A stretch of DNA of 64,000 nucleotides. It comes from an uncultured Chloroflexia bacterium. GTDB taxonomy: Bacteria; Chloroflexota; Limnocylindria; Limnocylindrales; CSP1-4. Of this stretch, positions 19,415 through 21,593 are shown in pieces. The stretch lies in assembly GCA_963813535.1 (NCBI GenBank), contig CAWEZH010000002.1:224001-288000 (forward strand). The letters run 5' to 3'. The notes under the pieces are model-generated. The model saw only the letters and a list, made by a program, of their open reading frames with translations, was not told where the DNA came from and searched no databases. Both the position numbers and the translations under genes were made by a program. The stretch's first letter is position 1; each line of letters starts with the position of its first letter.

Positions 19415-20038
19415 ATGACCGACGAGCACCAGCACGAGCACGACCACGACGGCGGCGATGAGCACCATCACCACGAGCATCGCCCGATGTCGTATGAGGA
19501 GGCGGTCGAGGAGTTCCGCTCCGACAAGGACGAGTTCTTCCGTTCGAACCCGAACAGCCCGATCCCGGAAGGGGAGCGCGCCGGCTTCACCGGCTTGCCC
19601 TATTACCCCGTCAGCACCGCACTCCGGTTCGACGACCTGCCGCTCGAGCCGTACACCGGCGGTGAGCCGTCGGACTTCCAGATCCCGACCTCGGACGGTC
19701 GACTCCGTCCGGCGCATCGGGCCGGCGTGCTGCGGTTCGATGCCGACGGTGAGTCGCGTCAGTTGACGGCATACACGTTCGACGGCGGGGACGGTCAGTC
19801 ACTGTTCGTGCCGTTCCTGGATCAGACGAGCGGCCGCGAGACCTACGGCGCCGGGCGCTATCTCGACCTGGAGCCCGAGGACGACGGCACGTACTCGCTC
19901 GACTTCAACCTCGCCTACCACCCGTCGTGCGTGTACGACCCGAAATTCTCGTGTCCGCTGACGCCCGCCGAGAACCGCCTGCCGATCCGTGTCGAGGCCG
20001 GTGAACGATTGCCGCCGGAGCCTGCTGCGGCCGGATAG
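19415..20038 (+). CDS. DUF1684 family protein with His-rich N-terminus
   Basis: FVPFLDQTSGRETYGAGRYLD, DFNLAYHPSC. Confidence 0.88.
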   Translation: MTDEHQHEHDHDGGDEHHHHEHRPMSYEEAVEEFRSDKDEFFRSNPNSPIPEGERAGFTGLPYYPVSTALRFDDLPLEPYTGGEPSDFQIPTSDGRLRPAHRAGVLRFDADGESRQLTAYTFDGGDGQSLFVPFLDQTSGRETYGAGRYLDLEPEDDGTYSLDFNLAYHPSCVYDPKFSCPLTPAENRLPIRVEAGERLPPEPAAAG

Positions 20039-20062: not shown

Positions 20063-21469
20063 TCAGGGGCGGCGGCCGCCTCCGCGTGGTGCGGTACTCG
20101 TCGGGACCTGCGTGGATCGCCGGCGGCCCGTACCCGACGTCGGACGGGGGTTACGCAGGAAAGTCGGGAGGTCGAGGCCGTCCTCGCTCGGGTCGAGCGC
20201 GGGCAGCTGAGGCTCGGCGTGCTGGACAGATGCGGCGCGGGCTGGCTCAGGACTGGGAGCAGGCTCCGGCTGCGTGGCCGACGCCTCGCGGCCGTTGGAA
20301 GCGTGGGCCTCTACCTCGTCTCGAGGCGCTGCGTCGTGGCGGGGAGGTGCGTCGTGGCGGGGAGGGACCAGGTGGCGGGCACTCGGCTCCGGCCGCGGAT
20401 CGTGTCGGCTCGTCGGTTCGGGTCGCCGTCGACCGTCGAGCCCGGTCGCGATCAACGTGATGTGGACCTCGCCGTCGGACACCTCGCCGACGCTCGCGCC
20501 GAAGATGACGTTCGCCCGGGGATCGACCGAGGCGCGGATCTCGTCCGCCGCCTGTCGGACCTCGCGCAGGCTCAGATCGGCCGGGCCGGCGATATGGAAC
20601 AGGACGCCGTGGGCACCGTGGATGCTCGACTCGAGCAGCGGGCTCGATGCCGCCTGACGCGCAGCCTCGACCGCGCGTTGTTCGCCGCGGCCCTGACCGA
20701 GCCCGATCAATGCCGGCCCCGCGTTCTGCACGACCGAGCGAACATCGGCGAAGTCGAGGTTGATGAGACCTGGCGACGTCAGCAGCTCGACGATGCCCTC
20801 GACCGCCTTGAGGAGCACCTCGTCGACGACGCGGAACGCCTCGAGCGCCGACGCCTCGGGGTCGATGACCTCAGCGACGTGGTCGTTCGGGACGGTGATC
20901 ATCGCGTCGACCTCGGTGATCAGACGCTGGGCCGCTTCCTCGGCGATCTCACGACGTGGCGTCCCTTCGAAATCGAAGGGCTTGGTCACGACGGCGACCG
21001 TCAAGGCACCCTGCTCGCGGGCCTTGGCTGCGACGATCGGCGCGGCACCCGACCCGGTCCCGCCGCCGAGACCGGCGGTGACGAACACGAGGTCGGCACC
21101 CGCGACCGCCTTCGCGATGCGATCGGCATTCTCTTCGGCAGAGCGTCGGCCGGTCTCCGGGTCGCCGCCGGCGCCAAGCCCGCGCGTCACGGCATCGCCG
21201 ATGCGGAGACGAACCTCGGCGCGGGACTCACGGAGGGCCTGGGCGTCGGTGTTGACGGCGACGAAGCCGACACCCGGGAGCCCGACATCGACCATGCGGT
21301 CGACCGCGTTGCCGCCGCCACCGCCGACGCCGACCACGAGGATCGCCCGCGTCTCGGGCCTTCGCCCGCGGCGAAGCCAGCCAGGGAGGGAAGCGAGGAT
21401 CCGCACCGTCAGGAGTCCCAGCAGGACGACGACGATGAGTTGGATGAAAGTCTGGGCCGTCGGGTCCAC
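20063..21469 (-). CDS. ftsZ: FtsZ homologue with N-terminal transmembrane helix
   Basis: VVGVGGGGGNA, NTDAQAL, GLGAGG, GGGTGSG, T7 loop GLINLDFADV, C-terminal LDLPTFLR; N-terminal FIQLIVVVLLGLLTVRILA. Confidence 0.92.
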   Translation of the reverse strand: MDPTAQTFIQLIVVVLLGLLTVRILASLPGWLRRGRRPETRAILVVGVGGGGGNAVDRMVDVGLPGVGFVAVNTDAQALRESRAEVRLRIGDAVTRGLGAGGDPETGRRSAEENADRIAKAVAGADLVFVTAGLGGGTGSGAAPIVAAKAREQGALTVAVVTKPFDFEGTPRREIAEEAAQRLITEVDAMITVPNDHVAEVIDPEASALEAFRVVDEVLLKAVEGIVELLTSPGLINLDFADVRSVVQNAGPALIGLGQGRGEQRAVEAARQAASSPLLESSIHGAHGVLFHIAGPADLSLREVRQAADEIRASVDPRANVIFGASVGEVSDGEVHITLIATGLDGRRRPEPTSRHDPRPEPSARHLVPPRHDAPPRHDAAPRDEVEAHASNGREASATQPEPAPSPEPARAASVQHAEPQLPALDPSEDGLDLPTFLRNPRPTSGTGRRRSTQVPTSTAPRGGGRRP

Positions 21470-21593
21470 CTGACGAGTGTAGTCCGGGGTGGTGCGCGCG
21501 CGGCACGGCTAATCGTCCTCGGGTACGTGGTCCCTTCGGCGGTGACGGCGTCTGACGGGTGGCGGCAAGCGATGGGTAGGGCACTATCCATGG

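Follow-up and report, generated by a model that had tools for sequence, protein, structure and literature searches.

A predicted self-anchoring FtsZ paralogue with an N-terminal transmembrane helix in a soil Chloroflexota bacterium

FtsZ is the textbook soluble cytoskeletal protein, which reaches the membrane by way of the adaptors FtsA, ZipA or SepF. The genome of an uncultured soil Chloroflexota bacterium, known as a metagenome-assembled genome that is 92.9% complete, encodes an FtsZ that appears to carry a membrane anchor of its own at the N-terminus, and we refer to this protein as TM-FtsZ. In the literature searched, no FtsZ with an N-terminal membrane-spanning helix was found. The locus therefore raises two questions: whether the helix is a real part of the protein, and what an FtsZ fixed to the membrane in this way might do beside the canonical copy. 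Here we describe the gene within a window of 64,000 nucleotides, the whole stretch of DNA that was analysed, together with its relatives in other genomes (Table 1). The explanation that we consider rather likely is that TM-FtsZ is an FtsZ paralogue, catalytically complete by its motifs, that is self-anchored, accessory and polymerising and still engages FtsA.

Table 1. Positions of TM-ftsZ and its features in the window
Feature	Residues	Position	Strand	Remarks
TM-ftsZ coding sequence		20063..21469	-	468 codons and stop, GTG start; ORF list and translation
Acidic N-terminal tail, predicted outside the cell membrane	1-7	21449..21469	-	Mean N-flank charge -0.96 in 26 sequences
Hydrophobic transmembrane helix (predicted), ~21 residues, near-invariant Arg23	8-28	21386..21448	-	
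Juxtamembrane PGW motif and basic patch RRGRRPETR, predicted cytoplasmic side	29-42	21344..21385	-	
Tubulin/FtsZ GTPase domain with G-box GVGGGGGN	43-202	20864..21343	-	Pfam PF00091, 153.9 bits; whole-genome profile match with identical coordinates
Tubulin signature GGGTGSG	135-141	21047-21067	-	Translation
T7 synergy loop NLDFAD, both catalytic aspartates	237-242	20744..20761	-	Translation
FtsZ C-terminal (GTPase-activating) domain	251-345	20435..20719	-	Pfam PF12327, 98.4 bits
Disordered Pro/Arg-rich C-terminal linker	346-429	20183..20434	-	AF2 pLDDT 40-53, without secondary structure
Conserved C-terminal peptide DGLDLPTFLR, putative FtsA/adaptor-docking motif	430-439	20153..20182	-	
Basic C-terminal tail, 29 residues, 7 Arg	440-468	20066..20152	-	Translation
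-10-like hexamer TACACT		21476..21481	-	GTG follows after 6 nt; no intervening Shine-Dalgarno
Conserved upstream boxes		21511..21538	-	Proximal ACGATT, 21511-21516, at -47; distal CGAAGGGAC, 21530-21538, at -69

Gene neighbourhood, start codon and upstream region

The translation opens with MDPTAQT, continues through FIQLIVVVLLGLLTVRILASL and PGWLRRGRRPETRA and passes straight into strand S1 and the G-box ILVVGVGGGGGN, so that the helix runs directly into the GTPase core, as the initial annotation had described. One flank of the gene carries RibD_C, UvrD helicase and DUF1684 proteins, the other a metallo-beta-lactamase-fold protein, a HAD hydrolase, an HTH protein, an ACT protein and an FGE-sulfatase. 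A Pfam search of these neighbours found no division or mur gene adjoining TM-ftsZ at this locus, and the dcw copy is another gene, which confirms the proposed placement outside the dcw cluster. No conserved partner gene is common to the 22 loci compared; a trigger factor-ClpP-ClpX neighbourhood recurs at six loci only, on the other strand. Across the loci compared, TM-ftsZ is a solitary gene found in three or more unrelated contexts, none of which places it beside division genes. A mobile island was ruled out by the flat GC content (0.67-0.72 over 14-28 kb).

The -10-like hexamer had been taken as support for the GTG start, and its position in other genomes bears this out: all 28 family loci aligned have a TANNNT motif 6-8 nt ahead of the start (background 0.0008 per position), and of 48 further loci 46 have a -10 box at a distance of 5-9 nt. 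Such a near-fixed distance, together with the lack of a Shine-Dalgarno sequence, makes a leaderless mRNA likely, and we strongly infer from these signals that TM-FtsZ is translated from a leaderless transcript beginning at the GTG.

It is highly improbable that the extension is an annotation artefact, in which translation would begin at the GTG codon of Val22 or Val45 and leave the hydrophobic stretch untranslated, or in which this stretch would be a cleaved signal peptide. In this genome Val22 and Val45 are indeed encoded by in-frame GTG, but these internal codons are not conserved, one orthologue (L005) lacks any alternative ATG, GTG or TTG ahead of its G-box, and a start at Val45 would delete strand S1. 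The distance from the -10 box to the first GTG or ATG is likewise kept in 28/28 loci, and an in-frame stop lies three codons upstream of the start in four of the first seven orthologues. For the first 40 codons, close pairs give dN/dS values of 0.19-0.36, which indicates that the helix region is under purifying selection and conserved as protein; the extension occurs in relatives and is not peculiar to this assembly. Among 120 listed metagenome proteins, 100 span all 60 N-terminal residues. As for a signal peptide, the basic residues follow the helix and do not precede it, the reverse of a Sec or Tat layout, and FtsZ needs cytoplasmic GTP.

Two conserved boxes lie further upstream. Of 28 loci, 18 have the proximal one at -47/-46, and the upstream alignment shows a 22-nt spacing in 10 loci; the boxes at about -47 and -69 are probably a transcription-factor site. 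A relaxed pattern search of the genome found no second intergenic copy; apart from the gene's own site, the only match lay inside a coding region and was judged to be due to chance. An RNA element was also considered upstream of TM-ftsZ and rejected, as Rfam returned only a sub-threshold snoRNA match and RNAalifold gave 0 pairs and no consensus structure. Two soil metatranscriptome runs contained 5-6% of the sampled TM-ftsZ words, on short contigs that mostly represent conserved FtsZ parts of other organisms. Two near-identical pieces, of 151 nt with 2 differences and 201 nt with 6, fell in the core, and no contig covered the N-terminus or promoter.

Membrane helix, GTPase core and C-terminus

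The best 19-residue Kyte-Doolittle window of TM-FtsZ reaches 2.56 at residues 8-26 (best elsewhere in the protein, 1.45), and the N-terminal segment scores 2.43-3.2 (mean 2.75) in 26 of 26 relatives; the threshold for a transmembrane segment of about 19 or more residues is 1.6. An anchor in the form of an amphipathic helix was considered and rejected, the hydrophobic moment of the segment being low (0.13) and its mean Eisenberg hydrophobicity high (0.77). For comparison, the C-terminal tail of the genome's own FtsA has a moment of 0.60 and a mean hydrophobicity of -0.11. Uniform hydrophobicity of this kind is as expected of a bilayer-spanning helix. The AF2 model places a helix over residues 3-34 (pLDDT 82-97), followed by a linker at 34-38 with pLDDT below 50. 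R23 is kept in at least 90% of TM-FtsZ sequences, and so are P29, R36, P38, E39 and R41 among 130 sequences. Counted against a membrane helix was the near-invariant R23 inside the hydrophobic stretch, which leaves an uninterrupted apolar run of only about 15 residues.

Flank charges follow the positive-inside pattern in all 26 sequences (N-flank mean -0.96; C-flank mean +3.5, range +2 to +5), in keeping with the N-out/C-in topology suggested at the outset. TM-FtsZ is thus strongly predicted, by hydropathy, charge bias and the AF2 helix, on which the helix call rests, to be a single-pass N-out/C-in (type III) membrane protein. Residues 8-28 would cross the membrane once with about seven residues outside, while the Arg-rich patch would be cytoplasmic, as would the entire GTPase core, some 10-14 residues from the inner leaflet.

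Behind the helix, the protein is an FtsZ by sequence and predicted fold. Residues 40-354 match the TIGR00065 ftsZ equivalog model with 376.4 bits (cut-off 295.2). The core of the AF2 model has pLDDT above 90 and superposes on solved FtsZ structures with TM-scores of 0.90-0.96 at 50-53% identity (Foldseek); the top 50 Foldseek matches are all FtsZ, with target TM-scores of 0.87-0.96. The motifs reported earlier are all present, including LDLPTFLR at residues 432-439. Both the GGGTG[ST]G signature and the NxDxxD T7 loop are invariant in 130 relatives, with D239 and D242 of the loop unchanged throughout. A set of 103 canonical FtsZs has 54 columns with conservation of 95% or more; 52 of them were kept in at least 90% of 35 TM-FtsZs, and the remaining two showed L-to-V and I/V changes. 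Judged by sequence, nothing sets the polymerisation surface apart from that of canonical FtsZ, and the 52 retained columns lead us to predict GTP-dependent polymerisation and GTPase activity. Identity as one of the divergent Tubulin_2-type proteins FtsZl1/FtsZl2 was rejected, a Pfam scan at E up to 0.01 giving only Tubulin and FtsZ_C.

The C-terminal linker varies in both length and sequence among relatives. The docking motif beyond it is present in 114 of 130 family members, and at least 90% of 130 sequences retain P435, F437, L438 and R439; conservation on this scale indicates that the peptide is held under selection in the subfamily containing this TM-FtsZ. Divergent TM-FtsZ subfamilies have kept the helix and lost the docking peptide. 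The long basic tail noted previously exists here, but is common only to the closest relative and is short or absent in other members. A complex prediction for residues 1-385 of the genome's FtsA and residues 415-468 of TM-FtsZ gave a score of 0.09, with the mark at 0.34.

The canonical copy, distribution and phylogeny

The genome contains a canonical ftsA-ftsZ pair 88 kb from TM-ftsZ (at C2:333 kb), in which ftsZ has a GGAGG Shine-Dalgarno sequence, so that TM-FtsZ is indeed a paralogue beside a canonical copy. FtsA is the only known FtsZ tether found; SepF, ZipA and MinC were not found in this 92.9% complete genome. Between the TM-FtsZ core and the canonical FtsZ of the same genome, identity is 56%. 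Within the genus, core identity is 55-97% for TM-FtsZ versus 85-90% for the canonical copy, and by this comparison TM-FtsZ is evolving much faster.

Carriers of TM-ftsZ make up 19 of the 49 genus genomes searched. Among the 22 that are at least 90% complete, 10 have the gene and it was not found in 12, an absence from which we conclude that TM-ftsZ is dispensable. TM-FtsZ is found in at least 47 species genomes; a class-level scan used an E-value limit of 1e-140, too strict for divergent TM types, and FtsZ-like representatives were inspected as the best 150 of 35,521. A housekeeping dcw-cluster FtsZ was discarded as an identity for this protein in view of its unrelated neighbours, its patchy occurrence (10/22) and the separate dcw copy. 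In the phylogeny, 29 of 30 TM rows fall in one clade (SH-aLRT 98), whose sister group is the canonical Limnocylindrales FtsZ, and a tree constrained to hold all 30 together was not rejected (p-AU 0.63), which answers in the affirmative the earlier question of whether TM-FtsZ forms a clade.

Comparison with other tethered FtsZs and possible roles

TM-FtsZ shares with canonical FtsZ (TIGR00065; B. subtilis 2RHL/2VAM, S. aureus 5H5G, M. tuberculosis 1RLU; the own dcw copy) the Tubulin and FtsZ_C domains, the GTP-binding loops, the T7 aspartates, the disordered linker, the docking peptide and the fold (TM-score 0.90-0.96). Unlike canonical FtsZ, it has a predicted N-terminal transmembrane helix and basic patch, and its gene is a predicted leaderless, stand-alone, patchy accessory one outside the dcw cluster that evolves faster.

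Engineered membrane-targeted versions, FtsZ-mts and mts-FtsZ, were reportedly made by Osawa and Erickson. These are tethered directly without FtsA or ZipA, as TM-FtsZ would be, and the N-terminal version is its closest artificial analogue; the engineered proteins used a MinD amphipathic tag, whereas TM-FtsZ is natural and conserved and combines a predicted integral helix with the C-terminal peptide. Among natural proteins, Mycoplasma group 1E FtsZ anchors itself through an amphipathic helix and has in some cases lost the adaptor peptide, according to a preprint (bioRxiv 10.1101/2023.08.29.555414), and Odinarchaeota FtsZ1 also self-anchors through an amphipathic helix (PMC12583498). Together with chloroplast FtsZ1 they have built-in attachment like TM-FtsZ, several at the N-terminus, and the loss of the adaptor peptide in some mirrors the TM-FtsZ subfamilies without it. 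Their anchors are peripheral amphipathic helices, unlike the uniformly hydrophobic segment described here, and unlike them this TM-FtsZ keeps its docking peptide. FtsZl1 and FtsZl2 are tubulin-superfamily proteins for which a previous analysis proposed membrane remodelling outside cell division (Makarova and Koonin 2010, PMC2875224); as described there they are highly divergent and lie in conserved operons, whereas TM-FtsZ is bona fide by the equivalog model and lacks operon partners.

Under the explanation that we favour, TM-FtsZ would bind and hydrolyse GTP and polymerise head-to-tail directly on the membrane without the need for an adaptor, as an accessory and non-essential copy beside the canonical pair. 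Since the docking peptide is kept, it most likely still engages FtsA, and as a subunit with a permanent anchor it would probably become part of the Z-ring or seed it. A transcription factor at the boxes near -47 and -69 probably switches its expression. The self-anchoring paralogue of the initial annotation is supported by the canonical pair, the conserved extension, the start signal, the topology and the clade. As possible roles that annotation had named co-polymerisation with the main FtsZ, tethering of it, or a separate remodelling filament. The anchor is probably functional, to judge from the divergent subfamilies that lost the docking peptide with the helix retained and from the similar Mycoplasma pattern. 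Counted against this explanation are the failure to find the gene in 12 of the 22 near-complete genus genomes, the lack of any conserved neighbour to hint at a partner and the effect of an artificial N-terminal membrane tag, which in vitro turns membrane bending the other way, as cited in the preprint (bioRxiv 10.1101/2023.08.29.555414), and so makes it doubtful whether an N-anchored subunit fits ordinary Z-ring geometry.

The same reversal, from concave dents to convex bulges with an artificial N-terminal tether (cited in bioRxiv 10.1101/2023.08.29.555414), favours a filament independent of the Z-ring, whose N-face tether would bend or stabilise the membrane in the other direction, for example in protrusions, vesicles or shape control. 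This role, which we hold to be somewhat unlikely, also agrees with the solitary position of the gene, away from division genes in at least three unrelated contexts, with its own conserved promoter and upstream boxes, with faster evolution (55-97% against 85-90% core identity in the genus) and with the loss of the FtsA-docking peptide in some subfamilies. The subfamily to which this protein belongs, however, keeps the peptide (114/130), a polymerisation surface indistinguishable from that of canonical FtsZ would make co-assembly hard to avoid, and the linked partner genes typical of remodelling systems are missing. We give little credence to a regulatory instead of a structural role in division, in which the membrane-fixed FtsZ would act on its canonical counterpart by capping, sequestration or nucleation in certain circumstances, for instance delaying division or shifting its site. 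The gene is dispensable and patchy, its promoter looks regulated, and other spatial regulators may be needed because MinC was not found in the genome (92.9% complete); yet the protein has both an intact GTP pocket and an intact T7 loop, and known capping or poisoning variants of FtsZ usually lose one face.

How tether geometry sets the direction and size of the constriction force is still debated, and most work on it has relied on artificial membrane tags. The TM-FtsZ family is a natural test case, in which the predicted integral helix sits at the N-terminal face and some members carry the adaptor peptide while others lack it, and it opens to reconstitution whether an N-face anchor reverses bending, whether a transmembrane subunit can treadmill and whether it co-assembles with ordinary FtsZ. 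For Limnocylindria, which are widespread in soil and groundwater, it predicts an optional, separately regulated second division-type filament. A bolder and quite unlikely reading, drawn by analogy, takes TM-FtsZ as a natural 'inside-out' Z-ring, a second FtsZ machine switched by a regulator and shaping the membrane in reverse through budding, protrusions or a brake on septation. Filaments fixed to the bilayer by their N-terminal face through a tether of about 10 residues would then show the opposite curvature and push outward or resist constriction, and the subfamilies without the FtsA-docking peptide would work wholly independently of the divisome.

Gene layout, translation start and upstream DNA

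The translated gene for the FtsZ paralogue with an N-terminal transmembrane (TM) helix, TM-FtsZ, begins with MDPTAQT, followed by FIQLIVVVLLGLLTVRILASL, PGWLRRGRRPETRA and then immediately the first core strand S1 with the G-box (ILVVGVGGGGGN). The hydrophobic extension and basic patch that the initial annotation had placed ahead of the GTPase core are seen in the translation, and so are the tubulin signature GGGTGSG, the T7 loop NLDFAD and the C-terminal docking peptide DGLDLPTFLR, all described as intact, with an Arg-rich tail of 29 residues after the peptide. With 376 bits, the protein exceeds the cut-off of 295 set for the NCBIfam ftsZ equivalog model.

Coordinates of TM-ftsZ, its protein domains and adjoining features
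Feature	Position	Strand	Remarks
TM-ftsZ ORF	20063-21469	-	468 codons, GTG start; ORF list and translation
-10-like hexamer TACACT	21476-21481	-	6 nt before GTG of TM-ftsZ
Conserved upstream boxes	21511-21538	-	same position in loci L005, L007, L123, L125-L132, L136 and others
DUF1684 protein	19415-20038	+	downstream of TM-ftsZ
Tubulin domain	TM-FtsZ residues 43-202		Pfam scan
FtsZ_C domain	TM-FtsZ residues 251-345		Pfam scan

TM-ftsZ orthologues were gathered from related genomes for comparison of their start codons. The hydrophobic segment and basic patch precede the G-box in all 7 of the first orthologues, and the segment recurs in 26 of 26 aligned relatives, so that the extension is not unique to one assembly. 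An upstream stop lies three codons from the conserved GTG in four of the seven. Translation starting past the hydrophobic stretch is disfavoured, since orthologues do not share the further GTG codons that occur at residues 22 and 45, the compared locus L005 has no other ATG, GTG or TTG between the conserved GTG and the G-box, and dN/dS over the first 40 codons is 0.19-0.36 in the less saturated pairs (0.0-0.26 in the core). Initiation at residue 45 would also remove strand S1.

The TACACT hexamer, cited earlier as support for the GTG start, was confirmed and belongs to a fixed arrangement. A TANNNT hexamer, mostly TAGACT or TACACT, ends 6-8 nt ahead of the start codon in 28 of 28 loci (exactly 6 nt in 23), which span different neighbourhoods and divergent subfamilies, against a background of 0.0008 per position in the same loci; no Shine-Dalgarno sequence was found between hexamer and start in any of the 28. 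Among the motif-scan loci, TANNNT stands 5-9 nt ahead of the start in 46 of 48 further cases. The genome's canonical ftsZ is instead preceded by a leader of the ordinary GGAGG type. This promoter layout would fit a leaderless mRNA with the start codon as its first base.

Approximately 70 nt of upstream DNA accompanies TM-ftsZ across unrelated neighbourhoods. It holds an ACGnnT box, located at -47/-46 relative to the start codon in 18 of 28 loci, and a CGAAGG-type box near -69, the two being spaced by 22 nt in 10 of 28. The boxes yielded neither a consensus RNA fold nor an Rfam family, and no second intergenic copy was found in the genome. They probably represent an activator site at a promoter without a -35 element, through which the signal inducing TM-FtsZ might be identified.

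Membrane helix, FtsZ core and docking peptide

The best Kyte-Doolittle window of 19 residues scores 2.56 in TM-FtsZ of the window and 2.43-3.2 in all 26 aligned relatives; outside the N-terminal segment, the best windows reach 1.45-1.79. The segment has an Eisenberg mean hydrophobicity of 0.77 and a hydrophobic moment of 0.13, whereas the C-terminal membrane tail of the genome's own FtsA has values of -0.11 and 0.60, respectively. Judged by sequence, this is the profile of a predicted spanning helix and not of a surface helix. In the relatives, net charge averages -0.96 for the N-flank and +3.5 (range +2 to +5) for the 15 residues past the helix, which by the established positive-inside rule, relating flank charges to membrane topology, predicts an N-out/C-in orientation. 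An AlphaFold2 model built with a 130-sequence alignment has a confident helix at residues 3-34 (block pLDDT 89, 97 and 82), a hinge of low confidence at 34-38, an FtsZ core modelled with high confidence at 43-342 and, finally, a disordered tail. In the family alignment, Arg23 is near-invariant within the hydrophobic segment and is followed by a conserved Pro-Gly-Trp; this arginine may snorkel to the inner head-group region.

An alignment of 103 canonical FtsZs, drawn from many phyla, has 54 columns with conservation of 95% or more. Of these columns, 52 are retained by at least 90% of the 35 TM-FtsZs compared, and the two remaining ones are L-to-V and I/V. The sole clade-specific core position is Arg41, just ahead of S1. 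Foldseek aligned the model with the solved structures of B. subtilis, S. aureus and M. tuberculosis FtsZ at TM-scores of 0.90-0.96 and 50-53% identity. With core columns nearly all kept and a fold matching solved FtsZs, GTP binding, hydrolysis and head-to-tail assembly would be expected.

The docking-peptide motif is present in 114 of 130 family sequences, P435, F437, L438 and R439 each being kept in at least 90% of them, and the subfamily of the window's protein retains it. Two divergent subfamilies, the 'MDWLTQ' group (11 clusters) and a group around locus L057 and database protein P0142, keep the helix and have no recognisable docking peptide. The same loss is described in a preprint (bioRxiv 10.1101/2023.08.29.555414) for Mycoplasma FtsZs that bind the membrane via their own amphipathic helix, and by this analogy the loss in helix-bearing subfamilies would lend indirect support to the helix as a real anchor. 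Separately, the TM-FtsZ of L177 (genome G332) has no canonical docking peptide and carries WRPVWLRR near its C-terminus, which may be a degenerate one.

Genome context and relation to the divisome

The assembly (3.28 Mb, 92.9% complete) has exactly two FtsZ genes. The second copy, a canonical FtsZ of 409 aa of the kind that the initial annotation proposed to look for, lies 88 kb from TM-ftsZ directly after a full-length FtsA (TIGR01174, 423 bits); the ORF following it is, as we take it from its translation, YggS-like. The search proposed for ftsA and sepF succeeded for the former alone: SepF, like ZipA and MinC, was not found in the 92.9% complete assembly, thus FtsA is the only recognised FtsZ tether in the genome.

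In line with the earlier remark that ftsA, ftsQ, sepF and mur genes are not adjacent, no division or cell-wall gene adjoins TM-ftsZ; a family scan of the flanking ORFs gave RibD_C, a UvrD-type helicase, DUF1684, a metallo-beta-lactamase-fold protein, a HAD hydrolase, an HTH protein, an ACT protein and an FGE-type enzyme. Across 22 TM-ftsZ loci, comparison of 6-7 kb flanks found no gene family common to all and at least three unrelated neighbourhoods. In six genomes (loci L150, L151, L152, L155, L156 and L166) the gene is tail-to-tail with trigger factor-clpP-clpX, ahead of valS. FtsZ is a degradation substrate of ClpXP in model bacteria; as the linkage is confined to these six and not general, it is probably coincidence. 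The DUF1684 protein has a His/Asp/Glu-rich start (MTDEHQHEHDHDGGDEHHHHEH), perhaps a tail that binds metal.

The gene, its start codon, the helix and the intact core are, taken jointly, held with high confidence. The reading as a whole, a self-anchored, polymerising accessory FtsZ of the FtsA-FtsZ divisome, is favoured with moderate confidence, and its link to the divisome is the inferred part. TM-FtsZ would cross the membrane once, N-out/C-in, and its cytoplasmic core would need no adaptor to polymerise there. As an optional extra component under regulation, it would engage the divisome via the docking peptide and probably also by co-assembly; the peptide of such an N-anchored protein would still be able to reach FtsA through the long flexible linker. 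The main rival, an independent remodelling filament, we consider rather unlikely. The geometry of the tether bears on both readings: as cited in bioRxiv 10.1101/2023.08.29.555414, an artificial membrane tag gave concave dents when attached to the C-terminus of FtsZ and convex bulges when shifted to the N-terminus, and by analogy the natural N-face tether of ~10-14 residues could act opposite to the Z-ring.

The literature searched, a set with most subscription journals and supplements outside it, yielded no report of a transmembrane helix in a natural FtsZ, and the word 'transmembrane' is absent from the FtsZ/tubulin evolution paper PMC9871819. Direct membrane binding is described for Odinarchaeota FtsZ1 (PMC12583498), Mycoplasma FtsZ (bioRxiv 10.1101/2023.08.29.555414) and chloroplast FtsZ1 (as cited in that preprint); their helices are amphipathic, whereas that of TM-FtsZ has a spanning-helix profile.

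Distribution and descent

The family falls in Candidatus Limnocylindrales / Limnocylindria (Chloroflexota), according to the source names of two metagenome proteins and most motif-scan records. Scanning 301 genomes of the order with the family profile gave TM-type matches of 587-763 bits, beginning at profile position 8 or lower, and canonical matches of 530-556 bits, beginning at position 41-42; 205 weaker matches lie beyond those listed. Among the matches listed, the TM type occurs in 19 of 49 genomes of the window's genus (10 of the 22 with a completeness of 90% or more), and a sister family with 1.1-Mb genomes has a second full-scoring match in 0 of 42. Two further genera of the window's own family also have carriers, at least three genomes between them. 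One genome of the window's genus, G121, has two TM-ftsZ genes of different subtypes (L156 on contig C3 and L157 on C2) plus a canonical ftsZ. The order- and class-level tallies include six unpublished genomes (G249, G226, G374, G380, G361 and G387), which no TM-FtsZ claim uses.

A phylum-level scan of 401 genomes with the N-terminal profile added one carrier, L177, from another family of the same class, with the N-terminus MDFLANDLTKLLLAAAVVALVAGVAVVRRAR and a TAGCGT box 6 nt ahead of its ATG. Outside the class TM-FtsZ was not found in these genomes, which is to be read as 'not found' and not as 'absent' because scoring was limited to 16 candidates in each genome. When 185,579 species genomes were scanned with a DNA motif for the juxtamembrane-G-box junction, 48 loci were obtained, 47 with the helix; in the sole remaining one, L219 of an uncultured Chloroflexia MAG, the helix region is out of frame with the G-box, owing either to decay of the copy or to a sequencing error. 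A few records carry other phylum names, two of them contigs of 6-7 kb; these labels are probably labelling or binning noise. In metagenomes, 156 proteins match the first 60 residues (E <=0.01); 100 of the 120 matches listed cover all 60, and every named one bears only 'cell division protein FtsZ'.

Whether TM-FtsZ forms a clade was addressed with a maximum likelihood tree (LG+C20 PMSF, quick search) of 66 core sequences, filtered by identity from 139. It does for 29 of 30 TM rows (SH-aLRT 98), and this clade and the Limnocylindrales canonical FtsZ fall together (SH-aLRT 96), apart from Anaerolineae and other phyla. The thirtieth row, P0127, is placed next to the TM clade, and a constraint joining all 30 had the better likelihood and was not rejected (p-AU 0.63). 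Core identity to the genome's own copy within the genus is 85-90% for canonical FtsZ, and TM cores range from 55 to 97%; together with the tree, these sequence comparisons indicate a paralogue that is old relative to the genus, evolves faster and has been repeatedly lost or exchanged.

P0127, a metagenome representative, has a different membrane architecture, with two hydrophobic segments (residues ~8-27 and ~66-81) ahead of the G-box and no docking peptide. N-terminal helices were inspected in the best 150 of 35,521 FtsZ-like representatives. The database proteins P0122 (840 aa), the top score in that profile search, and P0126 (826 aa) contain two complete FtsZ units head-to-tail, without a hydrophobic N-terminus, and are either true fusions or merged gene calls.
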